DNA of 64,000 nt from Torpedo marmorata (taxonomy: Eukaryota), in contig OZ360242.1 in NCBI GenBank assembly GCA_977017645.1, positions 61,814,001-61,878,000 on the forward strand, in the 5' to 3' direction. A program made the position numbers and the translations under genes. The notes below the pieces were generated by a model. It saw only the letters and a list, made by a program, of their open reading frames with translations. It was not told the origin of the DNA and made no database searches. Each line of letters begins with the position of its first letter. Position 1 is the first letter of the stretch. This document shows positions 3,001 to 48,812 of the stretch, piece after piece.

Positions 3001-4010
3001 CATCACAAAAGTTACACAAATCAAAATCCGAAATATCAGAAATGTGTTTCAGATGTGGTGGAGAAATTGGAACTTTCCTGCACTACACTTGGTCCTGTGC
3101 AAAGGTACGACCCTTTTGATATGATATATCTAATACACTAACCAGAATTACAGGGGTGGCCTTTCCACTGGACCCAGAGTTGTATCTCCTAGGAAATCTA
3201 ATGGACATAAGCTACAAATTATCTAAATTCCAAATTCAATTTGTGCTCGTTGCTTTGTCCATAGCAAAAAAATGCATAGCAGTCACTTGGAAGTCCGACT
3301 CCCCCCTTCTTATCACTCGATGGTCAGCAGAAATGCGCAGCTGTATTCCTATGGAGAAAATCACATATAATCTTAGGAATAAATATGATACATTTGTCAA
3401 TGTGTGGCAACCATACCTAGAGTATATTGGTGTCCAGTTATAATTTAAACCCTAAAGTACAGTACAATGTAATGTATAAATATTTAATGGTGTGATGTCT
3501 CCAAGAAGGTTGAAAAATCATTGTAAGCACTGACGGTACGTTTAGTTGTTTTTTTCCATTTTCTTTTTTAAATCTCTTTATTCATTCCATAAAATCATGG
3601 ATATAACAGTTCATTCACTATATACGTTTACAGGAAAAAAAAGCAAAGAAAAGCATTATCACATGTTCCATTAATCCATCCATAACAGAGTATACGTTAC
3701 AGATATATATCAATTTTTTTTCTTTACAATTTAGTATAATACCAATAGGTATAAAAAGAACCAAGCCACAAAAAAAAAGATAATATAGTAATTTCATCAT
3801 AATACATTTTTTTTATAAAAGCGAAAGCAATATTTTTTCCAATTTCTTTTTCCTTTTCTTTTGTATGTTTTCTTTTTTCTTTTTATGTTTTTTCTTTTTA
3901 GTTGGGGGAGGGAGGGAGAGTTTAATAATAATGTTGTCTATAATTGGAAACTATATTTTTTGTTTATATTGTGGACTTTTCGTGAAAATTAAAAAATAAT
4001 TTTTTTTTTT
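1..4010 (+). mobile_element. L1-clade LINE, decayed ORF2 (APE endonuclease, RT, C-terminal Cys motif) plus 3' UTR; 5' part lies outside the window
   Basis: Successive frameshifted ORFs 25-3443 carry the endonuclease motifs GDFN, DAWR, TRIDYF and SDHAP, the RT motifs KSPGEDG, YRSISLLNADYKI, SLDAEKDFD, RQGCPLSP and LFADY, and C-terminal CFRC..GTFLHYTWSC and EKITY..F.NVWQPY. A T-rich 3' UTR with a G-run follows. Confidence 0.95.
3569..3832 (-). mobile_element. short antisense retroelement 3' tail (L1-type) nested in the L1 3' UTR
   Basis: The minus strand ends GAATAAAGAGATTTAAAAAA. It is flanked by near-identical 19-mers TTTTTTCCATTTTCTTTTT (3550-3568) and TTTTTTCCAATTTCTTTTT (3833-3851), read as a target-site duplication (TSD). 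Confidence 0.65.
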
Positions 4011-8169: not shown

Positions 8170-8268
8170 GTTCCCGAGGCTCGGAATCAAGCCCTTCCCA
8201 TCTGTCTCCAGTGCAGCCCACCACCACTGCATCTGAGGAAATCTGGGTGCTACGGAAACCGTTTGCAG
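8170..8268 (+). CDS. CASKIN1: CASKIN1 coding exon containing the CASK-interaction motif
   Basis: ccgcag|GT...GCAG|gtagag, 99 nt, phase 1-1. Encodes (G)SRGSESSPSHLSPVQPTTTASEEIWVLRKPFA(G); EEIWVLRKPFAG is the Caskin1-specific CASK-binding motif. Confidence 0.95.
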
Positions 8269-10444: not shown

Positions 10445-13238
10445 ATTACAATCCTTGGAGAACAAATTTGATGAACTCCAAGCCAGACTTCAACATCAGA
10501 GTCATCAGGGAGTGCTGCGTGATGTGCTTTACAGAAACATGTCTAAATGCGGATATTCCGGACACGGCGCTGCAGCCCAAGGGCTACACCCTCCATCGCG
10601 CTGACTGAAAAACCAGGGAAGGCGGCATTTGTGTCATCATCAATTCATCGTGATGCACAGACATGACGGTCATGTCCCAGTCCTGCTCCCCCGACCTGGA
10701 ACATCTGGCGATCAAGTGTCGCCCATTCTACCTCCCGAGGGAGGTCACCACCATCATCCTGGTCGCAGTGTACATTCCACCCCAGGCTAACGTCAGGCTG
10801 GCAATGGAGGGACTGAGCACTATGATAAACAGCCATGAGACAGCACATCCTGATGCCTTCCCGATCATTGTGGGGGACTTCAATCAGGCCAACCTGAAGA
10901 AGTCTCTGACAAACTACCACCACACATCACATGTGAGACCAGGGGAACAAACACGCTCGACCACTGCTACACCATCATGAAGAACGCATACCGAGCCATA
11001 CCACGACCGCACTTCGGCAAGTCTGATCACCTGGCTGTATTTCTACTCCCGGCGAACAAGCAGAGGCTGAAGACCACAGCACCAGTGGTGAGGACGGCGA
11101 AAGTATGGTCAAGGGAGGTGGAGGAGCGTCTGCAGGACTGCTTTGAATTGGTGGACTGGAACATAGTCAAGAACTCATCCATAGACCTGAATGAATATGT
11201 AACAGGTGTCACCGACTTCATCAAGATCTGCGTGGATGAGTGTGTGCCCACGCGCACATACCGGGTGTTCCCCAACCAGAAGCCCTGGATGAATCAGAGA
11301 ATTCGCAACCTGCTGAGGGTGAGAACAAGGGCGTTTAAGGCTGAGGATCGGGATCTTTACAAGAAGTCCAGGCACGACCTGCAGAAGGCCATCTCTGAAG
11401 CAAAGTGGCAAATCCGGAGGAAGCTAGAGCAGAGACAGATACACGCCAGCTATGGCAGGGAGTGCAGGCCATTACAGCCTACAAAGTGAGGGCGAACACA
11501 ATTGACAGCTGTGATGCTTCACTACCCGATGAGCTGAACACCTTCTATGCCCGTTTTGAGAGGAAGAACCAAACAGTGCCTACTAGAATCACTGAAAAGG
11601 CTGAGGACCCTGTAATATCTGTCTCTGAGGGCGACGTCAGAACATCATTCAAGAGGGTGAACCCGCGCAAGGCGACAGGCCCTGATGGCGTACCTGGCAG
11701 GGTACTGAAAATCTGCGCCAACCAACTAGCCGGAGTGTTCACGGACATTTTCAAACTCTCATTGCGGCAGTCAGAGATTCCCACCTGCTTCAAAAGGGCA
11801 TCAATCATCCCGGTACCCAAGAAGAGTAGTGTAAGCTGCCTCAACGACTACCACCCAGTAGTACTAACTGATAATGCTTTGAAAGGCTGGTCATGGCCAG
11901 AATTAATACATACCTAAGCAAAGATCTGGACCCACTGCAATTCGCCTATCGTCACAATCGCTCCACAGCAGATGCAATATCGCTGACTCTCCACTCAGCT
12001 CTGGATCACCTAGAAAACAGCAATTCATACATACGGTTGCTCTTCATCGACTACAGCTCGGCCTTCAATACCATTATTCCCTCAGTGCTGGTCAAGAAGC
12101 TACAAACTCTAGGCCTCTGTACCCCCCTCTGCAACTGGATCCTTGACTTTCTCATCGGAAGACCACAGTCAGTACGAATTGGAAACAACGTCTCCTCCTC
12201 ACTGATTATCAACACAGGCGCACCCCAAGGATGCATGCTTAGCCCACTGCTCTACTCGTTATACACCCATGACTGTGTGGCCAGGCACAATTCCAATGCC
12301 ATCTACAAGTTTTCCGATGACACCACAGTTGTCGGCAGAATCACAAACGGCAATGAGGAAGCGTACAGGAGGGAGATAGATCAGCTCGTTGAATGGTGTA
12401 ACGACCACAACCTTGCGCTCAACGTCAGCAAAACCAAGGAGATGATTGTGGACTTCAGGAGGAAGTCAGGGGAACACGATGCAATCCTCATTGAGGGCTC
12501 AGTAGTGGAGAGGGTCAAGAACTTCAAATTCCTGGGTGTCAACATCTCCGAGGATCTGTCCTGAAGCCTCCACGTTGATGCAATCACAAAGAAGGCTCGC
12601 CAGCGGCTATATTTTGTGAGGTGTCTGAGGAGATTCGGTATGTCACCGAAGACTCTCGTAAACCTCTTCAGGTGTACCGTGTAGAGCATTCTGGCTGGTT
12701 GCATCACTGCCTGGTATGGAGGCGCCAACTCTCAGGACAAGAATAAACTCCAGAGGGTTGTTAGATTTCAGATTCAGATTTCAGATTTATTGTCAGAGTA
12801 CATACATGACATCACATACAACCCTGAGATTCCTTTTTTCCTGCGGTCGCGGCAGAATTAACTCGGCCTGTGACATCACAGGCACCAGACTTCACTCCAT
12901 CGAGGACATCTACATGAGGCGGTGTCTTAAAAAAGCAGTCTCTATCCTCAAAGACCCCCTCCACCCAGGCCATGCCCTCTTCACTCTGCTACCATCGGGA
13001 AAAAGGTACAGGAGCCTAAAGGCGAGCACTCAACGGCACAAGGACAGCTTCTTCCCCGTTGCCATCAGATTCCTAAATAATCAATGAACCAAAGACACTG
13101 CCTTGCTTTTCGTGCACTATTATTTATAATGTTTTTATAGTATTGTCGTAAGATGGTTATAATATGAATGTTTGCACTATGATGCTGCTGCAAAACACCG
13201 AATTTCATGACTTGTTCATGACAATAGATTCTGATTCT
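10445..13238 (+). mobile_element. Rex1/Babar LINE, near full-length endonuclease + RT, inactivated
   Basis: QSLENKFDEL..CCVMCFTET..PFYLPRE..VYIPP..GDFN..FGKSDH; [40 protein letters not shown]; 3' tail ATGACAATAGATTCTGATTCTG. Contains frameshifts and stops. Confidence 0.95.
12763..12859 (-). mobile_element. 97-bp 3' tail of a second Rex1 family inserted antisense into the Rex1 copy
   Basis: Interrupts the host GGGTTGTT^AACTCGGCC. The sequence matches the 3' ends at 28878 and 60836 (TCAGATTTATTGTCAGAGTACATACATGACATCACATACAACC). Confidence 0.9.
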
Positions 13239-13454
13239 GCATGAAATCAATCCTACCCACTCACTAGGCATGATTATCAAGGGATTCACCCAGACATCTG
13301 CACTCTGATAGGAGATAGTGTGGTGACTATAAGAAGCAATTCTGGAAATTAAGGGGAGTTAGGGTAACTGGTTAGCTCACAGAACTAGCACAATGCATAA
13401 TGAACTCAAATGTACTCCTTTTCTGCTGTATGCATCCATCAATTAGATTATCGT

Positions 13455-13920
13455 TTGAAATATCAGATCAGATACTATTTATTATCATGTAATAAAACAG
13501 AAATGTAATATTACACAAAATTGCCTTTAGTCTGCCATAAGACAAAGATTTGCCATTAGCATTAGCATTGCCCGATGCCCCTTAAAGTCAGAGAAAGAGA
13601 AGCAAACTAGAGGCCCTCCAGAGTTACTGAGTGTCTGTGGATTCGCCTCCAGTGCTCCCGCAGCCTCTGCAGCTGCGCAAGACTCTAGTTCAGTTCAAAC
13701 CATCGGCAACCCGAGTCCATATCCAAACCTCCGACACGATGAGGAAACCTTCATTGCCCAGGGCCCTTCGGGACCCTCCTTGCCCTCAGCATCCTCTCGA
13801 ATCCCGGTTCCGATACCTGGTTCTCATCAGCCAGTCCCCAGCAGCCCGCAGCCTGTATGGGTTCCTCGCCCACAAGTCGCCAACAGCTCACCATCTGTGT
13901 GTGTCCTTCAGCCGCAGAAT
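13455..13920 (-). mobile_element. non-coding retroposon with GC-rich body and Rex1-like 3' tail
   Basis: The minus strand ends ATGATAATAAATAGTATCTGATCTGAT. The tail resembles that of the 5S-SINE at 30989-31118. Confidence 0.5.
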
Positions 13921-14900
13921 GTAGCTAAGAATGCATTACATTTGTGAAAATCTACAGTCAAGTCAAAAATCTTAAGAAAAAAATATTGCCAAAATAAAAA
14001 TGCAAAATGCTGCAAATTATCGTCAGTGTGAAATGGACTTACCAAGTAATTCAGTTCAAGGTGAAATTAGGATACGTCATTCTGCCAATGGTGTTCACAT
14101 TTGACATTTCAATTAAAAGCAATTTAATTGGCTCTGTTTCGGCAAACAAAGAAACAACTTTTGGATGTGGAGGATGTCCAAATGAGGAAGGCAGTTTTCA
14201 TTGCTCCTCTGGGTTGGAATTCGGGTCATTATCAAAGCCTCTCTCATTTTGGAAGCAGATTTCATGTGGCTAACCTGGGAACTCCTGAATAGTCTGAACT
14301 TTCTTCATCAACTCAATCCAAACCAAGAGATGTCAAAGGACCCAAACACAATCTTATGCAATGAGTGGCGAATGTTCTATGCATATTTAATATATTGACG
14401 CGTGAAATTAACCATGGATCCTAAAAGAGACCACTATCAAGTAAAAAAACTCTTACATTGGAAACTATTACATTGAGGCTTGACCTTCAGTAGTCCAGCA
14501 ACACGTTTGTTGAACTGCCCAAAAATTCTGAGAGTCACACCGAAGGAGTATTAACATGGCCTGATCACAAAAAGAGTAGAATTCACTTCACTTATGTGGG
14601 GAAATACTTCACAGAAACTGAAAACAAATAATGATTTTAGACATGATAGGCGGGAAATTGGTACTTAATAGGGGGATCGAGACTCAGCCACTGACACACT
14701 CCCCTCCTGATACAGATTCATTCAGTTAATGGAATCACATGTTTTCTGGTGGGTCAAGTCACTGAGGCTCCAGCACCAAGTTAGATGTAGAGGCTAAAAA
14801 CAAGCTTTTTCTCCTGATGTGGCTCTGGATTAAGATTAAATCACTTTATTACCTCATTATAGATGGTATGTAATTTATTTCTCTCAGCGTCCTTTTTAAA

Positions 14901-15621
14901 AACCTGAAGAAGTCTCTGACAAACTACCACCAACACATCACATGCGAGACCAGGGGAACCAACACACTCGAACACTGCTACACCACCGTGAAGAACGCAT
15001 ACCGAGCCATACCATGACAGTACTTTGGCAAGTCTGGTCACCTGGCTGTACTTCTACTCCCGGCGTACAAGCAGAGACTGAAGACCACAGCACCAGTGGT
15101 GACGACGGCAAAAGTATGGTCGAGGGGGGCGGAGGAGCGTCTGCAGGACTGCTTTGAATTGGTGGACTGGAACATATTCAAGAACTCATCCATAGACCTG
15201 AATGAATACGCAACAGGTGTCACCGACTTCATCAAGACCTGCGTGGACGAGTGTGTGCCCACGCGTGTTCCCCAACCAGAAGCCCTGGATGAATCAGAGA
15301 ATTCGCAACCTGCTGAGGACGAGAACAAGGGCGTTTAAGGCCGGGGATCGGGATCTTTACAAGAAGTCCAGGCACGACCTGCGGAAGGCCATCTCTGAAA
15401 CAAAGTGGCAATTCCGGAGGAAACTAGAGACAGAGACAGATACACGCCAGCTATGGCAGGGAGTGCAGGCCATTACAGCCTACAAAGCGAGGGCGAACAC
15501 TATAGACTGCTGTGATGCTTCACTACCCGATGAACTGAACACCTTCTATGCCTGCTTTGAGAAGAAGAACCAAGCAATGCCTACTAGAATCCCTAAAAAG
15601 GCTGAGGACCCTGTGATATCT
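14901..15621 (+). mobile_element. Rex1/Babar LINE, 5' half of a copy interrupted by an antisense Rex1
   Basis: Near-identical to 10891-11618. It stops at CCTGTGATATCT and resumes at 17259. Confidence 0.95.
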
Positions 15622-17258
15622 CAGAATCAGAATTTATTGTCATGAACAAATCATGAAATTCGGTGTTTTGCGGCAGCATCATAGTGCAATTAACATTCAT
15701 ATTAACCATCTGATGACATTACTATAAAAATTATAAACAATAGTGCACGAAAAGTAAGGCAGTGTCTTTGGTTCATTGATTATTCAGGAATCTGATGGCA
15801 GCGGGGAAGAAGCTGTCCTTGTGCCGTTGAGTGCTCGTCTTTAGGCTCCTGTACCTTTTTCCCGATGGAAGCAGAGTGAAGAGGGCATGGCCTGGGTGGT
15901 GGGGGTCTTTGAGGATAGAGGCTGCTTTTTTAAGACACCGCCTCATGTAGATGTCCTCGATGGAGTGAAGTTTGGTGCCTGTGATGTCACAGGCCGAGTT
16001 AACAACCTTCTGGAGTTTTCTCTTGTCCTGGGAGTTGGCGCCTCCATACCAGGCAGTGATGCAACCAGCCAGAATGCTCTCCACGGTACACCTGTAGAAG
16101 TTTATGAGAGTCTTTGGTAACATAACGAATCTCCGCAGACACCTCACAAAGTAAAGCCGCTGACGAGCCTTCTTTGTGATCGCATCAACGTGGATGCTCC
16201 AGGACAGATCCTCGGAGATGTTGACACCCAGGAATTTGAAGTTCTTGACCCTCTCCACGACTGAGCCCTCAATGAGGACTGGGTCGTGTTCCCCTGACTT
16301 CCTCCTGAAGTCCACAATCATCTCCTTGGTTTTGCTGACGTTGAGCTCAAGGTTGTTGCCATTACACCATTCAACGAGCTGATTTATCTCCCTCCTGTAC
16401 GCTTCCTCATTGCCGTTTGTGATTATGCCGACAACTGTGGTGTCATCGGCAAACTTGTAGATGGCATTGGAATTGTGCCTGGCCACACAGTCATGGGTGT
16501 ATAACGAGTAGAGCAGTGGACTAAGCACGCATCCTTGGGGTGCGCCTGTGTTGATAATCAGTGAGGAGGAGACGTTGTTTCCAATTCGTACTGACTGTGG
16601 TCTTCCGATGAGAAAGTCAAGGATCCAGTTGCAGAGTGGGGTACAGAGGCCTAGAGTTTGTAGCTTCTTGACCAGCACTGAGGGAATAATGGTATTGAAG
16701 GCCGAGCTGTAGTCGATGAAGAGCAACCGTATGTATGAATTGCTGTTTTCGAGGTGATCCAGAGCTGAGTGGAGAGCCAGCGATATTGCATCTGCTGTGC
16801 AGCGATTGCTAAGGTATGTGTTAATTCTGGCCATGACCAGCCTCTCAAAGCATTTCATCACAGTAGAAGTTAGTGCTACTGGGCGGTAGTCGTTGACGTA
16901 GCCCACTCTACTCTTCTTGGATACCGGGATGATTGATGCCCTTTTGAAGCAGGTGGGAACCTCTGACTGCCGCAATGAGAGGTTGAAAATGTCCGTGAAC
17001 ACTCCGGCTAGTTGGTTGGCGCAGATTTTCAATACCCTGCCAGACACGCCGTCAGGGCCTGTCGCCTTGCGAGGGTTCACCCTCTTGAATGATGTTCTGA
17101 CGTCGCCCTCAGAGACAGATATCACAGGGTCCTCAGCCTTTTCAGGGATTCTAGTAGGCACTGTTTTGTTCTTCTTCTCAAAACGGGCATAGAAGGTGTT
17201 CAGCTCATCGGGTAGTGAAGCATCACAGCCGTCTATAGTGTTCGCCCTCGCTTTGTAG
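15622..17258 (-). mobile_element. 5'-truncated Rex1/Babar LINE nested antisense in another Rex1
   Basis: Open RT frame ([20 protein letters not shown], ...AIRFLNNQ). The 3' tail (TTCTGA)n is at 15622. A 30-bp deletion removes the [10 protein letters not shown] region. Confidence 0.95.
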
Positions 17259-18786
17259 GTCTCTGAGGGCGACGTCAGAACATCATTCAAGAGGGTGAAC
17301 CCGCGCAAGCTGTCAGGCCCTGACGGCGTACCTGGCAGGGTTCTGAAAATCTGCATCAACCAACTAGCCAGAGTGTTCACGGACATTTTCAGCCTCTCAT
17401 TGCGGCAGTCAGAGGTTCCCACCTGCTTCAAAAAGGCATCAATCATCCCGGTACCCAAGAAGAGTAGTGTGAGCTGCCTCAACGACTACCGCCCAGTAGT
17501 ACTAACCTCTACTGTGATGAAATGCTTTGAGAGGCTAGTCATGGCCAGAATTAACACATACCTAAGCAAAGATCTGGATCCACTGCAATTCGCCTATTGT
17601 CACAATCGCTCCACAGCAGATGCAATATCGCTGGCTCTCCACTCAGCTCTGGATCACCTCGAAAACAGCAATTCATACATACGGCTGCTCTTCATCGACT
17701 ACAGCTCGGCCTTCAATACCATTATTCCCTCAGTGCTGGTCAAGAAGCTACAAACTCTAGGCCTCTGTACCCCCCTCTGCAACTGGATCCTTGACTTTCT
17801 CATCGGAAGACCACAGTCAGTACGAATTGGAAACAACGTCTCCTCCTCACTGATTATCAACACAGGCGCACCCCAAGGATGCGTGCTTAGTCCACTGTTC
17901 TACTCATTATACACCCATGACTGTGTGGCCAGGCACAATTCCAATGCCATCTACAAGTTTGCCGATGACACCACAGTTGTCGGCAGAATCACAAACGGCA
18001 ATGAGGAAGCGTACAGGAGGGAGATAGATCAACTCGTTGAATGGTGTAATGGCAACAACCTTGAGCTCAACGTCAGCAAAACCAAGGAGATGATTGTGGA
18101 CTTCAGGAGGAAGTCAGGGGAACACGACCCAGTCCTCATTGAGGGCTCAGTAGTGGAGAGGGTCAAGAACTTCAAATTCCTGGGTGTCAACATCTTCGAG
18201 GATCTGTCCTGGAGCCTCCACGTTGATGCAATCACAAAGAAGGCTCGCCAGCAGCTATACTTTGTGAGGTGTCTGAGGAGATTCCGTATGTCACCGAAGA
18301 CTCTCGTAAACTTCTACAGGTGTACCGTGGAGAGGATTCTGGCTGGTTGCATCACTGCCTGGTATGGAGGCGCCAACTCTCAGGGCAAGAATAAACTCCA
18401 GAGGGTTGTTAACTCGGCCTGTAACATCACAGGCACCAGACCACTCCATCGAGGACATCTACATGAGGCGGTATCTTAAAAAAGCAGCCTCTGTCCTCAA
18501 AGACCCCTACCACCCAGGCCATGCCCTCTTCACTCTGCTACCATCGGGAAAAAGGTACAGGAGCCTAAAGACAAGCACTCAATGGCACAAGGACAGCTTC
18601 TTCCCCGCTGCCATCAGATTCCTGAATAATCAATGAACCAAAGACACTGCCTTACTTTTCGTGTACTATTATTTATATATTTTTTATAGTAATGTCGTAA
18701 GATGTTTATAATATGAATGTTTGCACTATGATGCTGCCGCAAAACACCGAATTTCATGACTTGTTCATGACAATAAATTCTGATTG
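17259..18786 (+). mobile_element. Rex1/Babar LINE, 3' half of the interrupted copy
   Basis: Resumes GTCTCTGAGGGCGACG. ORFs 17295-18479 and 18364-18636; tail ATGACAATAAATTCTGATT. Confidence 0.95.
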
Positions 18787-24610: not shown

Positions 24611-26802
24611 AGCAAGCACAGAAAGATCCAACCATACACTTTGAGGCAGGTCGGATTTAGAAATTGCACAGATGAAGAGCTGAGAACATTTAATTTCCAC
24701 TGAAATTAAATATCATGCATTAAGGTTATTTAAAATGGTGCATGTGTATGGATGGTTTCTGCAGTTTAAACAACAAAGGTGCCAAAGCAATGATGTCAAT
24801 TGCTTGCAGTTTTGTATACTGACCAAGTTTGGATCCAGATCTGGAGTAGCTAATTAGTCAAGCATATCAACACCCATGAAACACTCTTGGTGCTGTGGAA
24901 GTAGTTGAAGAAACCCTGTCAACAAATGTTTGAAGATTCTTGTGAATTTTCCTGTCCTCATCTACAACAGTAACTTTTCCAAAGGCAGAAGAGAGACTAT
25001 CTCCAGAGGAGGAACCTGTTGACCACAGTCATCTTTCAGACAAATTTGGAAGTGAGATGGCTTCTTCTGAAGTGCAATTGGAGAGGAGATTAGACCAAAG
25101 TTTGTGACCTGGCAGCAAGACTGAATCAATACTTTGTTTGTTAATTGTACAATATCGAGAGAGTATTTGCCTTTATATGTTTGACTTAAGTTTACAGAAA
25201 AGATAATATTTTTGAAAGAGAGGGCAAAATTGTACATTTCTATATAGCCACCCACCATTATTGGAAGAGCAAGTCCTGTGATATGCCCATCTTGTAACTA
25301 ATTGAAGCAATCAGATAAGTGGAAGAGTAAGATGTACATAGCTTAGGTTTTTGGTGCTCATCCTTACTAATAAACCATGACTAATCTTTGATATCAATGA
25401 GTCCACATGTACATCAGCATAACGTAGAAAACAACACTCTGCCTTCTGCACTCAAATCCATATCATTAATACACTTCAAGAAACAAGTCATACAAGTAAT
25501 AAACCTTGGGGAAAGCAATTGCATTGCTTTCTTCAAAATAAGTGGCAACTATTCACAATGACACTTTGATTACTGATCCTGTCAATTTCATAATCATGTT
25601 CCCACTGGCCCATTTCCAATCCAAGTAAAATTTACAATCCCACTTCAAAGAATATATTATCCAGACCAAGGAATATTTATTGCCTCATGTTGGGGTGAAA
25701 ATTATTTCTCATTTCATTTTTGTTAATTTCCTATCCAATGTGATACTTATTGGTCTGTACTAGATATCCTCTGCACATTAGGTATTGACTGCATTTCATA
25801 GAAGTGGAGGCACCAGGGGTTCGGGGGTGGGGGGTTCAGCACGATTACTTCCCTGAAGGACTTGAGTAAACCAGTTAGCTCTTTAACAACAGTTCTGTAA
25901 ATCCTGGAACTCACGACAAAGTGAGAACATCTTCACCAAAAAGACATTGGTGAGTCACCACCACTTTCTCAAGATCTGTTAGGAATTGGCAATAAATACC
26001 AGACTTGCCAGTGATGCTCACATCCTGAAAAACAAATTTTTTAAAACGTCAAATGCATTCTACTCGTTTGCTTACAAGTGATTGATTGTTACAATGAGAT
26101 TTGAGTGTCCAGTCTCTGGAATGCCAGACCACTTTTTTATGGGTTTTTTTTTTCATTTCTGTCCAGGATGTGAGCAGCACAGGCAAGCCCACATTCCTAA
26201 ATGCCCTTGAGAAGCTGGTGGTGAGTTGCCTTTTCGAACTGCTACCATAGCAACATGCTTCAGATGCCATGCTTTGGAGATTCACATTGAATTCATTTAA
26301 TATTTGCAATGGCCCTGTCTGACATGAGTGCATTTACATTTTTGTGAGCATCTACTGCAGAGGTGTTCCATTTTCTTCTATACGCCTTCAAAGGCTGGTG
26401 ACTAACTGTGTCATCATCTGAGAGGCTGTCCGCATCTGTGGCTTTAAGAGAAAGATTCGGAAGCTGATCAGTACAATCTGTAGTGAGGAGCCGTTTTATA
26501 TCGAGATTCTGGTTCCTGTGTGTGCTGTATTACCTGGAGCTGTCCCTTAAATAGTAACCAATCTACTGAAGCAAAGCTGTTGTCACACCAATTGTGTCAG
26601 AACTGGATCACATACTGGTGCCTTGAGCTGTGTTAACCTCAGCTGCTTCTCAAAAGGGAGTCTGCTTTTCCTCCTCTACAATGCTGCCTTAACCTGAAGG
26701 GTCTATTTTTAAGATGCCAACGATTGTTCTTGATGCAGTCGGAGGTTCACCTGGAAAGAACATCTTCCTTCGTGTAACCACTCTCTGTTTTTAACGCTGC
26801 AG

Positions 26803-29827: not shown

Positions 29828-29925
29828 GAGTTGTTCGGCCTCAGACCGCAGCCAGCTGTCCTGTAGCAGAGCAACCGTACGGCGAGTCCCAGCTGAAGAA
29901 GGCAGACACACTATCGGAAGCAAAG
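29828..29925 (+). CDS. CASKIN1: CASKIN1 coding exon preceding SAM1
   Basis: ttttaccacag|GA...AAG|gtaagt, 98 nt, phase 1-0. Encodes (G)VVRPQTAASCPVAEQPYGESQLKKADTLSEAK, compared with mammalian GVAR.Q..Q.YGEQ..KK...SEGK. Confidence 0.9.
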
Positions 29926-30679
29926 GTAAGTGAGTCTGCAAACACCAGCATAGTGACCATAAACAGCAGCAGGGGAAAGATGCACACTTTCAAATCAGTC
30001 AGGTGTTTTCTCCCTTCCCCCATCCCTCTTTTCCTGTCTGCACAGTAATTCCTCTGGCTGGGATCAGAGCTGGAAGACGGTGAGTAATCATTTATTCTTG
30101 TTAGAGATTTGTATCTGTTCACATTCCTTTTCACAAATTGACAGATGTGACCACTCCATTGTGGTCACTCCATTTGTGACCACTGCATTTCACTCCATTG
30201 TGAGACTGACAGATGTTTTTAAAGCTGGTAACTGCCTACTTATAAAATGTGCATCCAACATCTCCCCTTCATGAAATTGTATCATGAATGTACCAATCAC
30301 CCTTGACTCAATGATTGTAGAGCACACAGGCAAATCATTTGTGGATGTTTGAAAGATGTATCCAGCTACGATATAAAATAGGAGATAATAAGCTGATTAC
30401 GCTTACACTTCAATTCCTATACTGCGTCTTTCTAGTCTGTGACATTCCTTTAGTGAGTTATATACTTGACTGTGACTCAGAACAGATTTTGCAAAAGTGG
30501 ACTGCATTAGCAACAATTCTCGATAATCCAGCAAAGGAACCAACAGTTAACAGATTTCTTTAAGGTGCTGTTATATCGTCAACCAGGGATCATGCTCTTT
30601 GCCACATCAGAAGGAAAGTAGAAGTGAACAGCAATCTGCAAGAAACAGAGTAGGGATGGGGAGAGAGCAAGAGCATACT

Positions 30680-30988: not shown

Positions 30989-31212
30989 GTAAAGGTAAAG
31001 GTTCCATTATTGTCACGTAATACTACATTTAGAATGTAAAATACATGAAATTCTTTAATTTTTGTCTACCGTAAGGCAGACAGAGAGTCGCTACTTTGTC
31101 CAGCGCCCCTCACAGAAACCTACAGCACCTGCCGTTCCTTGGCGGTCTCCCCTCCAAGTACTGTGCCTGCTTAGCTCCGAGATCAGACAATCCCAGTCGT
31201 ATTCAGGCTATT
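30989..31212 (-). mobile_element. 5S rRNA-derived SINE (SINE3) with Rex1-like 3' tail
   Basis: The minus strand of 31119-31212 reads TAGCCTGAA..GTCTGATCTCGGAGCTAAGCAGGCACAGTACTTGGAGGGGAGACCGCCAAGGAA..GGTGCTGTAGG, which aligns with 5S rRNA. It continues into ...GAATTTCATG...TGACAATAATGGAACCTTTACCTTTAC. Confidence 0.88.
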
Positions 31213-32461
31213 GGTAGTATTTAAATAAAATCAGCAAATTAAAAAGTACTGTTGGTAAAAGAACTACTGTTTAGGGATATAAATACAGCTGCTTGATGAA
31301 TGTACCTCAAGGAAGGAAAAAAAAAAATCAGTCTGGCAATTATGTGATTACTGACTCTCATCAATGTGGTTAACACTTTGCATTCCCTGAAATGGCCTTG
31401 GGGACAGTAAGGAATGGATAATAAGGGCTGGGAATTATAGAGTATACTTCTTGTTAGTGAGGCCCTTATTTGAGTGTGACTTGCTCCCACTCCAGTTTTA
31501 TATTCCGACGTGGCCATTGAGGCCAATTTGAAAACCACAGACCCTTCCATACGTGGGCAGGAGATTTCTGATGGGAAATTGAGCATTTTGCACTCTTTCT
31601 GCCACTTAGGCTCATGACATGTGGGCTCGAAGTTCTCGATGCCAACCCAAATGCTCTTTCTCTACTTTGAGCAGTCATGGGTCAAAGGTTACCAGACATC
31701 AGCGGCTGAAGTGCAGCCTGATAGATGCATCTAACATTATGAATGGCATAGATAATAGTGTCCTTTGCTGTTTTTTGTGTCAATTCCATTTCACTCTTTC
31801 AGTAACTGATGTAATGGTGTCAGGACAATTGCATGATCGAGTTAAAATCTAGCATAGTATTGTACCATGGCCAGAAAATAAATTCTACATTTTTTTCAGA
31901 TTTCCTCACCTTTAGGATTGCTTCCACTTTTTCTCAAGCTAGTTGCAATATATTTGCATCCAGTTTCAGCCTAAGATAAACTTGTTTTTGAATAAATGAA
32001 CACTGGACTACATTGTGTTCACATGCCAATCTGAACACTTATTTTAGTATTCAGAGATTCTCTTCTTTGGTACTTTTGGATATTAGCATAATATTTTGAT
32101 TGCATAGATAATGATCGACACTTTGGAGCATCATGTGCAATATATCTTGAAAAATCTTCAGTAATGATTTCATGAATAAAGTCACACAGATGTTTAGATG
32201 ATACTCCTTATCTACGTTCAGCTGGGCATGAGTGTGTATATGTATATTTTTTTGCTGAAATCTGCTCCTGCCATTTCTGCTTATAGATATTATGAAGTGG
32301 GCAGGTTATTTCTTATTGTTATTTACCTTGTGATTATCTAGTCTTGTATGCTTTAGGTATTGCCCAGTCATCCTAATGTGCCATCACTAAAACTGCATTA
32401 TTTTTTAATGTATCTGAGTCTTCCTCCACCATGCACATGGAACTGGTTGTGGCTTGCTGTA

Positions 32462-34285: not shown

Positions 34286-35891
34286 ATCAGAATCAGAATC
34301 AGAATTTATTGTCATGAACAAGTCATGAAATTCGGTGTTTTGCGGCAGCATCATAGTGCAAACATTCATATTAACCATCTTACGACATTACTATAAAAAA
34401 TTATAAACAATAGTGCACGAAAAGTAAGGCAGTGTCGTTGGTTCATTGATTATTCAGGAATCTGATGGCAGCGGAGAAGAAGCTGTCCTTGTGCCGTTGA
34501 GTGCTCGTCTTTAGGCTCCTGTACCTTTTTCCCGATGGAAGCAGAGTGAAGAGGGTATGGCCTGGGTGGTGGGGGTCTTTGAGGATAGAGGCTGCTTTTT
34601 TAAGACACCGCCTCATGTAGATGTCCTCGATGGAGTGAAGTTTGGTGCCTGTGATGTCACAGGCCGAGTTAACAACCCTCTGGGAGTTGGCGCCTCCATA
34701 CCAGGCAGTGATGCAACCAGCCAGAATGCTCTCCACGGTACACCTGTAGAAGTTTACGAGAGTCTTTGGTGACATACCGAATCTCCGCAGACACCTCACA
34801 AAGTATAGCCGCTGATGAGCCGCCTTTGTGATAGCATCAACGTGGATGCTCCAGGACAGATCCTCGGAGATGTTGACACCCAGGAATTTGAAGTTCTTGA
34901 CCCTCTCCACTACTGAGCCCTCGATGAGGACTGGGTCGTGTTCCCCTGACTTCCTCCTGAAGTCCACAATCATCTCCTTGGTTTTGCTAACGTTGAGCTC
35001 AAGGTTGTTGCCATTACACCATTCAACGAGCTGATCTATCTCCCTCCTTCCTCATTGCCGTTTGTGATTCTGCCGACAACTGTGGTGTCATCGGCAAACT
35101 TGTAGATGGCATTGGAATTGTGCCTGGCCACACAGTCATGAGTGTATAACGAGTAGAGCAGTGGACTAAGCACGCATCCTTGGGGTGCGCCTGTGTTGAT
35201 AATCAGTGAGGAGGAGACGTTGTTTCCAATTCGTACTGACTGTGGTCTTCCGATGAGGAAGTCAAGGATCCAGTTGCAGAGTGGGGTACAGAGGCCTAGA
35301 GTTTGTAGCTTCTTGACCAGCACTGAGGGAATAATGGTATTGAAGGCCGAGCTGTAGTTGATGAAGAGCAGCTGTATGTATGAATTGCTGTTTTCGAGGT
35401 GATCCAGAGCTGAGTGGAGAGCCAGCAATATTGCATCTGCTGTGGAGCGATTGTGACGATAGGCGAATTGCAGTGGGTCCAGATCTTTGCTTAGGTATGT
35501 GTTAATTCTGGCCATAACCAGCCTCTCAAAGCATTTCATCACAGTAGATGTTAGTGTTACTGGGCGGTAGTCGTTGAGGCAGCCCACACTACTCTTCTTG
35601 GGTACCGGGATGATTGATGCTCTTTTGAAGCAGGTGGGAACCTCTGACTGACGCAATGAGAGGTTGAAAATGTCCGTGAACACTCCGGCTAGTTGGTTGG
35701 CGCAGATTTTCAGTACCCTGCCAGGTACGCCGTCAGGGCCTGACGCCTTGCGAGGGTTCACCCTCTTGAATGATGTTCTGACGTCGCCCTCAGAGACAGA
35801 TATCACAGGGTCCTCAGCCTTTTCAGGGATTCTTGTAGGCACTGTTTTGTTCTTCTTCACAAAGCGGGCATAGAAGGTGTTCAGCTCATCA
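34286..35891 (-). mobile_element. Rex1/Babar LINE, 5'-truncated
   Basis: ORFs 35036-35860 and 34443-34973 (RT and C-terminus); tail (TTCTGA)3. Confidence 0.95.
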
Positions 35892-36039
35892 GCAAAGCAA
35901 TCATTTTAAAATTATTGTGCAGGAATCAATGAATCAATTTATTTGTGGTTCACTCTTGTAATGATCAATAGGAAATAAAGATTTAACAGATACTTGTCAA
36001 TGTTACGTCATAGTAAATCCATGGGTTAATTTTATTCCA

Positions 36040-39502: not shown

Positions 39503-40379
39503 AGGTTGGCAGCAAGAGTGCAGAGTAAGATGAGGGTACAGGATGTCAGAGAGAAAGGGGGCAATGGAATAGTGAAAGAACTAAAAGGGTAAGGGGTGAG
39601 CTGAAGGAAGCACATGAGGGAAGTAGACCAAGAGTAGGATGTTGATTTAGAGAGAGAGAAGAGAGATGAAAATAGAAGACAGGGATGGGTAATTGAAAAA
39701 GAGAGGAATTAATTTGGTGGGTGTACAAGATAAAGCGTCTGGGCAATATCATGGTAGTTTGTGTCTGTATGTGTGTCAGTGGGCAGAGAGCACAATTAAA
39801 TGTTTGTATGCATGTATGTGCCCAAGTACAAATATAACAAGTCTGTACAACAGAGCCTTGGTCTCCAACCATTTTGAACCGTCTAGCCTGTCTCTGTCAG
39901 GCCTGTGTGGCAGCTGATGTGCAATATTTAAAGAATTCCCACACAAGCATTTTCAACTTCTCAGAATTGTAGTAAAAGCAAAACATCCTTGACTCTGAGG
40001 GGTTTGCCTAATAAGAATTACTATGATGGAATGGGAGTTTTTTTCCCCCTTTTGGTATCAATGATTACCAAGTGGGAATGGATCCTTACTAGTTATCTAA
40101 CTTTGCTTGAAACAATTGCCAAGTTGTAATAAATGGTCACGATTGTCACGTGTGGCTGCCATCATGTCAACCCATCCCTCCATTTTGTTGGCTTTGTGGT
40201 GTTCTGCGTCTGACCATTTTTTTTCTGCAATATCACCTGCTGCTTTAAAATAAATCATCATTTCTTTTCAAGACTTAACTACCTCCAGATTTCTGGAGGA
40301 TATGACATCTTAAGGTTAGATTTTTACCACTGAATTCTAACCTGTTCCCATTCCATTTTTTTTGTCATCCTCTATCCAG

Positions 40380-40490
40380 AGCCCAGAGACAGTTTTTAAC
40401 TGGCTCAGTGAATTCCAACTCCAGCAGTATGCTGCTAACTTTATCAATGCTGGCTATGACATTCCAACCATCAGCCGCATGACCCCTGAG
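40380..40490 (+). CDS. CASKIN1: CASKIN1 SAM1 exon (N-terminal half)
   Basis: Long pyrimidine tract, tatccag|AGC...GAG|gtaagt, 111 nt, phase 0-0. Encodes [37 protein letters not shown]. Confidence 0.97.
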
Positions 40491-41417
40491 GTAAGTCTGC
40501 AAACACCAGGAGGAACTAGTGTTAAAAGAGACCGAGTGAGATACCTCTGTGTGACATTGGCCTTCGAATGCAATATGTGCGTTTAAATAAAATTGCTTTG
40601 CCTACTACCTGAGCAATGTGGAATCCGTTAAAATGGCAAACATTTCATACAAACTCATTAATGTTTATACATTAATATGCACACCAAGCTTTGTGCATTA
40701 GACACTAACAGAAAAATGCCCAGCTGCGATCATATTCCATTGCATATCACCCAAAAAGTGAAAGTGCATGAGCAAAAAGCTGTTCTTGATTATTTAGTCA
40801 GAACAGTTTCCAGGGAAACTACAGACTCCTTACACCATAAGATGCAAAGGAAGCACTCAAGGTTCCCTGTAATAATTAAGTATGTTGTTCACTGAGGACT
40901 GATTTTAATTTTTACAAAGACTGCAGATTTATTTGTCGTAGATTATATCATTCACTGTTGTAGAATCCAACACTTAACCTATTATCTCTCAAGCCTTTCC
41001 TGACATGGTGATTCATGCAAAGTACTCAATGACCCCTGCCACTATCCAAGTAACAAAATTCCACAGGCCGCCCTTAGTGACACAAATTCTTCCAATTCCA
41101 TTACATTTTAATCTGTCTCAAGTGGTCCTGCAAATCAAAAAATAAAGTTCTTTCATGAAATGATTTTGTCCATTTTGCGTTCAAGTTCTTATTACTTATA
41201 GGTTGCAATTATATTTACATGATTATGTATCCATTTAAGGAAGAAAACTAATCTTCAAAGGATTAAAGCAGAGCATGACAAATATTTGGTTTGGTGATGT
41301 ATGAATGCAAATGCCACCAAGTATGCTGGGGAATTGAATTTCAACTAATTAAATAAGCCTGGAATAAAAAGATAGTAACAGTAAAAGCTATTACTGGGAA
41401 AGAAATCTTATTAACGT

Positions 41418-42619: not shown

Positions 42620-45264
42620 ACAGGCCTTCAGCCCACGATGTTGTGCTGACCTATATTACACCTGTCAATCTGCCTGGGGCACCATTTCAGGAAAGGTCTT
42701 GAGACAAAATAGGAGGTAAAAGTGTTGGATTATATAGCAGTGGATAACAGGCAGTTCTGTAAAGATCCAGAGTGGTTAGGAATTTGGAGGGAGGGGTTCA
42801 AATGGATCAGGAATTCCATCAGTAACTTTAATTCTCTGTTTCACTCTTGCTCTGCCCTCTCTAACCTATTCCAAGCTGCAGGAATAGTACCTTCACCTTC
42901 CAACTTAGCACATTAGTACACAATAATATGGTTGCTTCTTCCCTCAGAAAGCCAATCACATTTTAAGGACAGTTAGGAATAGACCCTAAATTGAAAAGAA
43001 TTGGACAATAACCTAAAGTACAATTGTTTATACCGGGTACTTCCTTCCCAAGCCACTGATATTGGTTAAAGTCGTCAGTTCTCCCTTTTTTAAATAAAAT
43101 GACTACTAAGAAATTAGTGGTCAATCATTAAAACCTATGTTATTTAGATTAAAAGCTTTTGGTATCATCGTCATTGATCTCCCCTTATATTTTATCCCAC
43201 ATCAGAAACCATAATGATATCACCTGGCAATAAATAGTCACTGTTGGCCAAAAGCTTTCTGGTTCTCTGTGAGTAAAAGTTTGTATGAATTAGTTTTGGG
43301 AATTACTCTGCATTTTGAATGGCAGGTGCTTGAAGCCTGGAGTTTGCTGTTAATGTTTTCCAGATGTATGAATTGAACTGCAGCAGGGTAGGTGAAGATC
43401 AGAGAACAAATCAAACAAAGTTAAGATGAAAATAAGGAAATATGATTAGAAAGTTATTCAAAACTGTGAATTATTCAGAATTGCACAGGATTTTGTGCAT
43501 CAGGTCATATGAAATTAAGTTTAGGGCAGAAGGTTGGCTGAATTGGCCCATGATGTCTCCCTTCAATCCTCCATACTAACCTTGTTTGGGTATTGACCCA
43601 ACACGAGACTCTGCTCTTCCTTCCTTCCCATTTTACCCCTGATCTTTCCCAATTTTTCCTCTCAAAGGCTCCCGTCTCCATTCAGCCTCCTTCAGCTAAG
43701 AAGGAGGATGAATGTCGAGCAAGTGATGGACTTCTTCTCAACTATGGCACCAGCTCAGTCGACAGGAGGCATGCAGCCTCAAGGGCAAGGCATTCTAAAC
43801 CAGACTTACCTCCCCCGAAGGTGAGAGATTCTAATAATGTGCGACATTCAATTAGCTGACTAGAAACAACTCTTCTATTCACTGATTCAAAATTCCAGTC
43901 TGAAGGAAGGGAATTAGATGGTCCTAAATCTTTAAGTCATTGAAATGATTTATTACACCGAACAAAGACCAACGCCCAACATAGCCCTAAACCTGATATA
44001 AACTTTAAAGAAGGAGGGTTCTTGGCTTTCCAGACCATTGATTGAAGATGATGAGGAAAAATCTAACATAATCTATCCATGTTAAATATAACAGAACCAG
44101 TTACCAAGGCATTTTTGCACATCAGCTGATTTTAATTTTCATTTAAGTTAATTTTGTACAGACTGTGGAAGGTATACATTTGCTATTCCCATGGGACCTA
44201 TATCTGGTGAGTCAGGATAACAATGACCTTATGTGAAAGATACCCTTGCATTGCTCATTTTAACCCAGCAATAATAAAAGCATAGACATTCATCTTCTAA
44301 AGTATGCACTAAATAAGCAATATAGTGGCATGAGCGCATAAAACTCCTTTACTGAAATTCAGTTGCATTAAAATCAATAGAACCAGTTTTCAATGTGCAT
44401 ATATCATGATATCATGCATTTATTGCAGTTAACAGAGGATAACTTTCTACAAAATTCAGTTTAGAAATAAGATGGCAATTTCTGGGTCATTCCATGATCT
44501 TTGGATATGAGTCTGTATGAAGATCAGTTCCAAGCTCTTTATTAATAGAAGTCTGGAACACTTTGGCATGTTGGCCTCTCTGAGTGCCCTAACACGTGGT
44601 CTATTTCAAGTGAAATTATGGGATGAGAAATTGAGAATTCAAAGTTACTTTTTACTACTTCTCCCTTCAAAACCCCACCCACATCCCAAGAATTGTGAAG
44701 GAAGTTATGAAAATCCCACTTCCAAACAAGTTCAATGCAGTTGAAATCCCAGAAACCCCTATGAATCTCTCAATGAGACATCAAGGGGGTTCATGAGGGC
44801 AATTTTAATGGAACACAACTTTCAGGAAGCTCAATCCTGCCAACGTGGAGAATATAGGGCAGGATAAAGATCCAGTTTCACAGGATCTTGTGAGTTTGTC
44901 ATCCAGCGAGTTGGGTTAAAATGGCTCGGTGTTATTGAGCAGCACATATTGGACCCTTTACAAAACATGACAAATTAAATTGCATCATTCCTGACAACTT
45001 GTGCAAAATGTTGCAAGCGTCACCGCTTAATGCATATCAATTATATCAACTGTATTTTGCTGCAATGGCATTGAGTTAAATCATCTGCAACCCAACTCTC
45101 TAGACTAGAGTCACAGTTGGTATTGGAAGGGTATAATTTCTAACTGGCTTTTGGAAACCACTGATCTCAGTTTAGTCATTGTTAGCTTTGGCCTAATACC
45201 ACTTCCATTGTGAATTTCACCTTCAACAATGGCATCTTCAATTGTAACAAACTCTGTGTTCTAG

Positions 45265-45366
45265 GATCTAACAGCAATTGGAGTAACAAAACCCGGACAT
45301 AGGAAAAAGATTGCCATTGAAATAAATCGCCTGAATATCTCAGAGTGGTTGCCCAACTACCAACCA
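45265..45366 (+). CDS. CASKIN1: CASKIN1 SAM1 exon (C-terminal half and linker)
   Basis: gttctag|GAT...CCA|gtaagt, 102 nt, phase 0-0. Encodes [34 protein letters not shown]. Confidence 0.97.
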
Positions 45367-45859
45367 GTAAGTTTTATCACGTACTTCAACATCAAAAGGC
45401 TTTTCATTCTTAGTCAGTGAACCATATGTCCTTGAACTTCCCTCCAGTACCAATTCATGCCATCTTCTTGTCTTGATCCCAAACCTAACCCAAATCCAAA
45501 TCATTTTTTTTTTACATGTCAGCCACCATCTCATACATTCCAGACTGTTTCAATCTAAGTTGTGTTGTAATTTGCCAGCAAGTAGGACTTATTCAATGCG
45601 TAATATGCATAGGAGGACTGAAATATAAAAATAGGGTTCACAGGATTTGAAAGAGAATGCATTAACAAATCAGCAGCAAGTCATTATTCGAATGCTGTGA
45701 TAGATTGCACTGCCTAATCACTAACATAAAAGCCAATCTCGTGGCAGTTAATACAGCCAAATTTGAGTCGTTAAATAAAACGGAGGAAGTTTAGGAATTA
45801 AAAAGCAGCTTCAATTGACACCAATGGAAAATAAAATTGAGGTGAGCTATGCAAGAGAT

Positions 45860-46644: not shown

Positions 46645-48812
46645 CAACTAGGGAACATAGCCTCAAGTTTCGGTGGGAGTAGATTTAGGATGGAGATGAG
46701 GAGGAATGGCTTTTCCAAGGGAGTAGTGAATCTGTTGAAATATCTGCCTAAGGGAGCAGTAGAGGCTGCTTCATTAAATATAGTTAGACACAGATAGGTT
46801 TTTAAAAAAAATATTTTTATTGATTTTATACATTTAAAAAAACCAGTACATAGTTTATATGGAATGCAAATCGTAAGAAATTACACAAATCAACATATTA
46901 CATCGCATCCATAATAACATAACAAAAGTTAATATAATATACAAAGAAAAAAAACCAAAAACAAAAATCAAAAATTAATCAAAACCCCATCCCCCTAACA
47001 ACGTTGCATGGCAGAAAGAAACAACAATAAACTTCACTCCTAAAAGTGAAATGAAAAAAAGACAACAAAACTCAGATTATAAATTATATCTAATGATTGT
47101 GATAATAATTCAAAAATGGTCCCCACAACGCTTGGAAACTTATGCTAGAATTATTAATTGAATATCGAATCTTTTCTAAACTTAAACAAAACATAATATC
47201 TTTCAGCCACTGAGCATGAGTAGGCGGGGCGGCATCCTTCCACCTGAGTAGTACAGCATGTCTAGCCAAAAGAGAAGTAAAAGACAAGATGCGACATTTA
47301 TTTGGAGACTAAAAAACATCAATCTTCTCCCGTTGTACCGAAAAGAGCTACCAAAGGATTCGGTTCTAACTTTAGATCAAAGATAAAGTTTGGAAAACCT
47401 CCTTCCAGTACTTTTCAAGACTAGGACAGGACCAAAGCATGTGAATTAAAGAGGCCTCACCTCTTTTGCATTTATCACAACACGAATTTACCTCTGGATA
47501 GAAACGAGATAATTTGGCTTTGGAAATATGGGCCCTGTGTACAACTTTAAATTGTAATAAACAATGGCGGACACATAACGACATAGTATTGACTAACCTA
47601 AAAATTGAATCCCAGATCTCTTCCGATATAGACAAATTTAAATCCTGTTCCCAAGCATTTTTAATTTTAAGTATCGGGGCATACCTTAGGTCAGCCATTT
47701 CATTATAAATAAAGGATATTAAACCTTTACGCGAAGGTTATAAACTAAAAAATCTTATCCATGACATTCACATCTGGTACCCTAGGAAAACCAGGTATTT
47801 GAAATTGAAGAAAATGCTTGATTTACAAATATCTTTTTAAAAAATGAGTATTCGGTAAATTGTACTTCTCAGAGAGTTATTGAAATGATGCAAAACTATT
47901 ATCAAAAAAAAAGATCTCTGAAACGCTCAATACCCTTTCTGTGCCAAATTTGAAAAGCAGAATCTTGCAAAGCTGGTTGGAAAAGGTGATTGAATAAAAC
48001 TGGACTTTAAAGAAAAAAATCATGAAATCCAAAATGCTTCCTGAACTGAACCCATACTCTCACAGAGTATCTGACAACTGGATTGTCAATTGACTTATCT
48101 AAAGAGAAAGGGAGTGAGGATCCAAGAAGCGCTGGAAAGGAATTTTTTTTAGCAAAGTTAAGCTCCATTGTAACCCATGATGGACAATCGACTCGGTTAT
48201 GAAAATATAACCAAAACGTGAGGTTACGTATATTAACCACCCAATAACAAAACTTAAAGCCATGCCTCCATTCCTTTTCGATTTTTGTAAATGAATTTTA
48301 TTTAGACGAGGGCGCTTACCCTTCCAAATATAAAATGATATAGCCAAATCAAGCAAGTCAAAAAACGATTTAGGAATAAAAATTGGTATAGATTGAAAAA
48401 GGTATAAAAGTTTGGGTAGAATATTCATTTTAATAGAATTAATACGGCCAACCAAAGTTATAGACAGGGGAGACCAATGCGTAAAAGATTGTTTCACATG
48501 CTTTAATAAGTTAAGAAAATTTTCTTTGAAAATATGTTTATGATTTTTAGTAACTATGATACCAAGATAAATTAATTGATTTCTCACAATCTTAAAAGGA
48601 GAACTAGTATACATTGAAGCAGACGCATTCAAAGGAAGAAGTTCACTTTTATGTAAATTTAAGGATAAGTTTTTGCATTGTAGGGGAATTAAGTGCTATG
48701 GGAAAAGGCGGGTAAGTGGAGCTGAGTCCAAGACCAGATCAGCCATGATCTTTAGTGGAGCAGGCTCGACAGGCAGATGGATTACTCCTGCTCCCATTTC
48801 TTATGTTCTTAT
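46645..48812 (+). mobile_element. CR1 3' fragment (46645-46803 and 48664-48812) split by an L1 insertion
   Basis: FRMEMRRNGFSKGVVNL on the left. The 3' UTR continues TAGGGGAATTAAG..ATTTCTTATGTTCTTAT on the right. Confidence 0.85.
46804..48663 (-). mobile_element. 5'-truncated L1 (RT C-terminus to polyA) with TSD
   Basis: ORFs YLGI..TLVGRINSIKMNILPKLLYLFQ, CDKCKRGEASLIHMLWSCP, LEKIRY..WGPF. AATAAA lies near 46815. The 11-bp TSD is GATAGGTTTTT (46793-46803) / GATAAGTTTTT (48664-48674). Confidence 0.95.

Follow-up and report, generated by a model that had tools for sequence, protein, structure and literature searches.

A candidate Nova-enhanced poison exon ahead of the SAM domains of CASKIN1 in Torpedo marmorata

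Our analysis of a 64,000-nucleotide (nt) stretch of the Torpedo marmorata genome (contig OZ360242.1, forward-strand positions 61,814,001 to 61,878,000; here referred to as the window) pointed to a 34-nt segment in intron 14 of the CASKIN1 gene. As far as its sequence allows a judgment, this segment may well constitute a Nova-enhanced poison exon of the Scn9a E17a type that gives decay of the message rather than a stable short protein, and we hold this reading with about even confidence. In the proposed mechanism, Nova is predicted to bind a YCAY cluster just downstream of the segment; upon binding, the rarely included exon would be spliced in, an in-frame TAA codon would enter the reading frame, and the CASKIN1 message would likely be lost by nonsense-mediated decay (NMD). 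We infer that the segment is spliced, that Nova is its regulator, and that decay, and not a short protein, is the outcome.

The tandem SAM domains of CASKIN1 self-assemble into helical fibrils at presynaptic sites (PMC4994250, in part). If the reading is correct, a poison exon would lie right before these domains, within a module that also shows skipping or interruption of SAM1; neurons would use splicing to control how much CASKIN1 scaffold is made and how well it can polymerise, and Nova-coupled decay would reach the cartilaginous fishes. As the class itself is well known, the finding would matter beyond this gene only if the exon turned out to be deeply conserved, or the twin 16-mers described below to act as a structural switch.

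Position and splice sites of the candidate exon

An earlier note on this DNA had assigned the gene to CASKIN1. We agree with this assignment and rejected CASKIN2, because the exon at 40380-40490, which matches the first SAM domain of caskins, is 88 to 97% identical to chondrichthyan caskin-1 and 67 to 79% identical to chondrichthyan caskin-2, and because the CASKIN2 paralogue lies on a different contig. Exons 5 to 20 were placed by tblastn over 264 kb, exons 1 to 4 lying beyond that stretch; the exon numbers are our own count from the protein, and the linker exons found their best protein match in Narcine. The features around the candidate are as follows.

8170 to 8268 (+ strand): exon 11, carrying EEIWVLRK, placed by tblastn and isoform comparison, upstream of the candidate stop
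29828 to 29925 (+ strand): exon 14, the final coding exon ahead of the SAM domains, placed by tblastn, ending in phase 0 (...SEAK)
29926 to 30045 (+ strand): 120-nt intron ahead of the candidate exon, open in frame for 40 codons up to TAA at 30046-30048
30004 to 30045 (+ strand): candidate acceptor with pyrimidine tract, TGC and CAG, and an AG-free zone of 43 nt
30046 to 30079 (+ strand): predicted 34-nt poison exon, an AG...GT segment with TAA (30046-30048) as its first codon
30080 to 30085 (+ strand): candidate donor GTGAGT, from sequence and splice score
30088 to 30198 (+ strand): cluster of 10 YCAY motifs with a Jelen score of 1.34, its core (30146-30190) being a 15-nt tandem repeat of 3.1 copies
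40380 to 40490 (+ strand): exon 15, the first half of SAM1, starting in phase 0 (SPETVF...) and omitted in annotated isoforms

The anatomy given in the earlier note, a 34-nt piece preceded by a pyrimidine tract and a CAG ending at 30045 and followed by GTGAGT, matches the sequence exactly. Since exon 14 ends in phase 0 at 29925 and exon 15 starts in phase 0 at 40380, TAA is indeed the first codon of the candidate in the CASKIN1 frame, as had been claimed. Canonical and strong splice sites, as expected of a poison cassette exon, flank the segment: the acceptor scored 10.3 bits and the donor 9.9 bits, each exceeding 12 of the 16 real sites of the gene that were scored with a human frequency matrix (four real boundaries were left out). 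Within 528 kb (both strands of the 264 kb), the candidate is the sole AG...GT pair of at most 51 nt that reaches both scores. Both scores are also attained by 11 further unannotated pairs with lengths of up to 250 nt, all longer than 51 nt, and slightly relaxed scores yielded 71 pairs in total, 4 of them real or candidate. The overlapping exon-14 donor at +4 fails to restore the frame with or without the candidate exon. The candidate region is single copy in the 6.2-Gb genome, and an Rfam search returned no match over the element. A transposon origin of the exon or the cluster was rejected on account of this single copy and of the lack of self-BLAST cover until 30984.

An in-frame stop is subject to NMD when it lies more than 50 to 55 nt upstream of the last junction. 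Exons 15 to 20 lie downstream of the candidate stop, and NMD is predicted because five further exon junctions follow beyond the first one after it. The product would end at the counterpart of K552 in Narcine isoform P0038, ahead of the SAM domains, and would retain the ankyrin repeats, the SH3 domain and exon 11, whose EEIWVLRK motif we take to be the CASK-interaction region. The description of this product as an ankyrin-SH3-CASK-binding protein stands in that all three parts lie upstream of the stop, but it needs a restriction: the CASK-binding exon 11 is itself alternatively spliced, being omitted in some annotated catshark and skate isoforms, and the short product would therefore not always bind CASK.

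A second unannotated exon-like piece was noted at 26167-26220, between exons 12 and 13. It is 54 nt long and open in phase 0, has an acceptor of 14.2 bits (stronger than that of the 34-nt candidate) and a donor of 9.4 bits, and is absent from all fetched isoforms. Its presence counts against the reading of the 34-nt candidate as a used exon.

YCAY clusters and alternative splicing of the SAM1 module

YCAY clusters in the downstream intron enhance the inclusion of an exon by Nova. According to the Nova map, a cluster lying no more than 200 nt from a splice site predicts the direction of regulation, and the Nova KH domains are 94% identical across the vertebrates compared (both PMC2014790, in part). 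We scored clusters by the method of Jelen (PMC2014790, in part; cut-off 0.6). Within 200 nt downstream of the candidate exon the score is 1.34, above the 0.6 expected of Nova-enhanced exons, and this value was reached by 11 of the 3,384 background blocks (top 0.3%). Upstream of the exon the YCAY score is 0, the exon itself holds no YCAY, and there is no competing silencer cluster. The motif counts of the earlier note (10 in 30088-30198, 7 of them in 30151-30198) were reproduced; the latter segment is the only 48-nt window with seven YCAY motifs in the 64 kb, and just one other such window exists on the two strands of the 264 kb.

The same note had held that nothing here looks repeat derived. 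While this is correct for transposons, the dense YCAY core consists of 3.1 copies of a 15-nt tandem unit, and its seven motifs are therefore not independent. When only one unit was left, the raw score fell from 22 to 6 and the Jelen score to 0.78, which still exceeds the cut-off, yet is reached by 11% of the background blocks; the signal of a single unit alone is borderline. The tandem core is unique in the genome, and short hairpins are predicted for it, whose loops contain part of the YCAY motifs.

Alternative splicing is indeed concentrated in the neighboring SAM1 exons, which have YCAY clusters too. Besides exon 15, this hot spot comprises the following features.

40137 to 40368 (+ strand): second YCAY-rich zone, upstream of exon 15, in a silencer-type position
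43668 to 43820 (+ strand): in-frame cassette of 51 codons that interrupts SAM1 midway, annotated in both sharks and rays
45265 to 45366 (+ strand): exon 16, the second half of SAM1, omitted in annotated isoforms, with YCAY clusters on either side

Direct joining of exon 14 to exon 15 is the rule among the 95 full-length chondrichthyan isoforms (87 of them), while 4 skip exon 15 and 4 skip both exons 15 and 16, and none carries an insertion at the junction. Exon 16 alone is omitted in 13 proteins, and the 51-residue cassette splits SAM1 in 41. Annotated skipping of exon 15, exon 16 or both was found in catshark, bamboo sharks, stingray, devil rays, zebra shark, whale shark, loaches and deer mouse, the loach and deer-mouse isoforms omitting exon 15 or both exons. 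In mouse, RT-PCR on motor and cortical neurons confirmed a Caskin1 event termed "Ex15-16 skipping" (PMC3737506, in part), and this numbering presumably denotes the same SAM1 exons as exons 15 and 16 of the ray.

The zone upstream of exon 15 holds 14 YCAY motifs in 250 nt, a density reached by 0.08% of windows, and the clusters on both sides of exon 16 extend over 45020-45535. From these two regions we predict that SAM1 skipping is linked to Nova. A raw score of at least 10 was obtained for 4 of the 12 flanks of annotated alternative exons versus 1 of the 24 other flanks (one-sided Fisher p 0.03; the groups were drawn after the data had been seen). Around exon 15 of CASKIN2 the YCAY score is 0, and inspection of the first 1 kb by eye revealed no obvious cassette of this kind. 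Because exons 15 and 16 of CASKIN1 carry YCAY clusters in silencer positions, high Nova would be expected to yield less polymer-forming CASKIN1 in two ways, by decay of some messages and by SAM1 skipping in others.

Three side observations concern the cassettes and clusters of the gene. The 51-codon cassette would likely break the SAM1 fold or polymer and was not seen in the bony-vertebrate proteins fetched. A 29-codon cassette within the SH3 domain, annotated in Narcine, lies approximately 27,095 to 27,009 nt upstream of the window start and is preceded by the highest-scoring YCAY cluster among those upstream of an exon in this gene (raw score 24). A strong cluster of the same raw score (24) occurs at the exon-18 donor, approximately 7,500 nt past the window end, behind a large exon without known alternative use here.

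Alternative explanations of the 34-nt segment

The YCAY cluster might act, together with the clusters upstream of exons 15 and 16, on the skipping of these SAM1 exons, with the 34-nt piece being an unused pseudo-exon. Skipping of exons 15 and 16 is documented whereas the 34-nt exon is not, clusters flank both SAM1 exons, and the cluster lies 226 to 273 nt behind the exon-14 donor. This distance, however, exceeds the 200 nt of the Nova map (PMC2014790, in part), a score of 0 was obtained for the 200 nt immediately behind that donor, and the near-consensus splice-site pair right before the cluster would stay unexplained; we regard this account as possible but unlikely. The same stop could also be used differently, either by extension of exon 14 to the donor at 30080 as an alternative 5' site or by a decoy that keeps intron 14 in the transcript, with decay or nuclear retention as the consequence. 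No stop interrupts the 120-nt intron in frame before the TAA codon, so that retention or read-through gives the identical stop, but an open frame of this length arises by chance in 17% of 120-nt stretches of the gene region. A hairpin between the exon-14 donor and its exon is predicted at pair probabilities of about 0.96 to 0.99; the donor's pairing of 0.83 nevertheless falls within the range of the other donors (0.36 to 0.99). Both spliced Logan ORFs among the 16 shorter-protein matches (2 of the 144 proteins tallied at the exon-14 junction), which fall into clusters with named bat and deer-mouse proteins, are spliced as far as exon 14 and continue from there into intron 14. They also form part of the supportive context of the Nova-enhanced poison exon. 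These mammal-like ORFs represent read-through and not cassette use, and their two contigs may be pre-mRNA. An alternative donor would have no need of the strong acceptor at 30045. This second account appears distinctly unlikely.

Chance would suffice if a neutral pseudo-exon lay next to a tandem duplication of recent origin that coincidentally contains YCAY. About one pseudo-exon of such strength occurs per 50 kb and the cluster is of tandem origin, and these points, namely the repeat nature of the dense cluster and the 11 other strong pseudo-exons in 528 kb, also count against the Nova-enhanced poison exon. The joint expectation is nevertheless about 0.01 to 0.1 such elements per gene (a rough product of rates, for features picked after being seen), and becomes smaller still given that a real exon and a regulated module lie close by, making coincidence an improbable explanation. 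Very improbable, finally, is a stable ankyrin-SH3-linker protein without SAM domains, arising by NMD escape or from a last exon, or the use of an internal AG to give a 12-nt in-frame microexon (SWKT). The microexon would keep the frame, but an insertion at the junction was found in 0 of the 95 full-length chondrichthyan isoforms, and the AATAAA signals present from 31224 on, which could serve a last exon, are frequent in this AT-rich DNA. No chondrichthyan protein ending here was present among the 16 shorter-protein matches, and the short-protein branch of the neuron-regulated NMD switch put forward in the earlier note received no support; the anatomy, the frame and the Nova-type position of that switch hold, and its SAM1 neighbors are alternatively spliced.

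Searches in relatives gave the following results. An exon-pattern search for orthologous DNA returned 0 metagenome contigs from collections with almost no chondrichthyan DNA. A SAM1 profile was followed through the best 80 of 150 loci, and the 6 examined were teleost caskin-2, another fish-like paralogue and invertebrate-like genes, with no CASKIN1 among them. Searches with the read-through peptide, which were shallower for distant vertebrates, retrieved only full-length caskin-1 and one unrelated match.

Known systems and the twin 16-mers

The cryptic NMD exons regulated by Nova comprise those of Stx2 and Cdk5rap2 as well as Scn9a E17a, whose inclusion Nova promotes (Eom et al. 2013, PMC3552424, in part). 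The candidate resembles them in being an unannotated stop-bearing exon of a neuronal gene with an adjoining Nova-type element, whose inclusion would lower the protein; unlike these exons, which were established by CLIP, knockout and NMD block, the ray candidate is a prediction from sequence. It is plausibly a member of this already known class, and its splicing context grounds it better than was known to the earlier note. According to the sections of Eom et al. considered here (PMC3552424), Nova mostly represses cryptic NMD exons and promotes inclusion less frequently, which counts against the Nova-promoted inclusion proposed here. Caskin is absent from the text of that paper and two of its supplements, and caskin1 from the supplement parts searched of PMC3552424, PMC4930328, PMC11188260, PMC12626424, PMC11632617, PMC8187152 and PMC8052449. 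The literature searched contained no report of a CASKIN1 poison exon; genome-wide Nova or VastDB tables may list the event.

The mouse Caskin1 skipping event (PMC3737506, in part) concerns the same gene and, by our own count, the same SAM1 module, and is neuron restricted. It differs in being in-frame and reportedly FUS responsive, and the sections of that report considered make no link to a poison exon or Nova. The candidate also shares with the neural microexons of SRRM3/4 (bioRxiv 10.1101/2024.09.17.613571, in part) a short exon and a UCU/CUC-rich tract followed by a UGC ahead of the AG, this element being present upstream of the candidate AG, although the motif is short and common. Unlike those microexons, however, the candidate has 34 nt, above the usual 3 to 27 nt, its tract lies near the AG, its 3' site is strong rather than weak, and its length is not a multiple of three.

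Two identical 16-nt sequences follow the consecutive donors of exons 14 and 15.

29933 to 29948 (+ strand): 16-mer copy 1, directly behind the exon-14 donor
40494 to 40509 (+ strand): 16-mer copy 2, overlapping the exon-15 donor

At two mismatches there is no third copy in the 264 kb, and 4 exact copies occur genome-wide. Of the 171 donor pairs compared, the runner-up shares 9 nt, and under a Markov null the probability is 1.2e-6 per pair. A role as a general donor motif was rejected (3 genome matches). Descent from a dispersed repeat whose head resembles the 16-mer was likewise unsupported: 2 of 18 alignments extended beyond the 16-mer at p <0.05, and a profile of 20 repeat copies matched neither site.

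The arrangement recalls ATE1, where R1 and R4 compete for R3 through intronic pairings (PMC7797038, in part), in that two similar elements flank two exons; unlike in ATE1, no pairing partner above background was found for the ray 16-mers. The best partner near an exon, at approximately 40197-40215 inside the YCAY zone of exon 15, gave -14.9 kcal/mol, was matched by 14% of 300 shuffled cores, and paired in 1 of 3 folding windows. It is conceivable, if decidedly doubtful, that exons 14 to 16 form one switch, in which the twin 16-mers would compete for one partner upstream of exon 15, one pairing bridging out the poison exon and the other looping out SAM1, and the Nova clusters would tip the balance among full-length polymerising CASKIN1, SAM1-less CASKIN1 and decay.

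Some further features of the window were recorded. A predicted hairpin (29902-29939) joins the end of exon 14 with its donor, and a second overlapping donor lies 4 nt downstream. The introns contain many broken LINE-type reverse-transcriptase fragments, of an ordinary kind (610-3443, 10654-18636, 34443-35905 and 47372-48695), and a weak 5S-rRNA-like match below the gathering score lies at 31117-31215 on the negative strand, inside a dispersed repeat that is perhaps a SINE.
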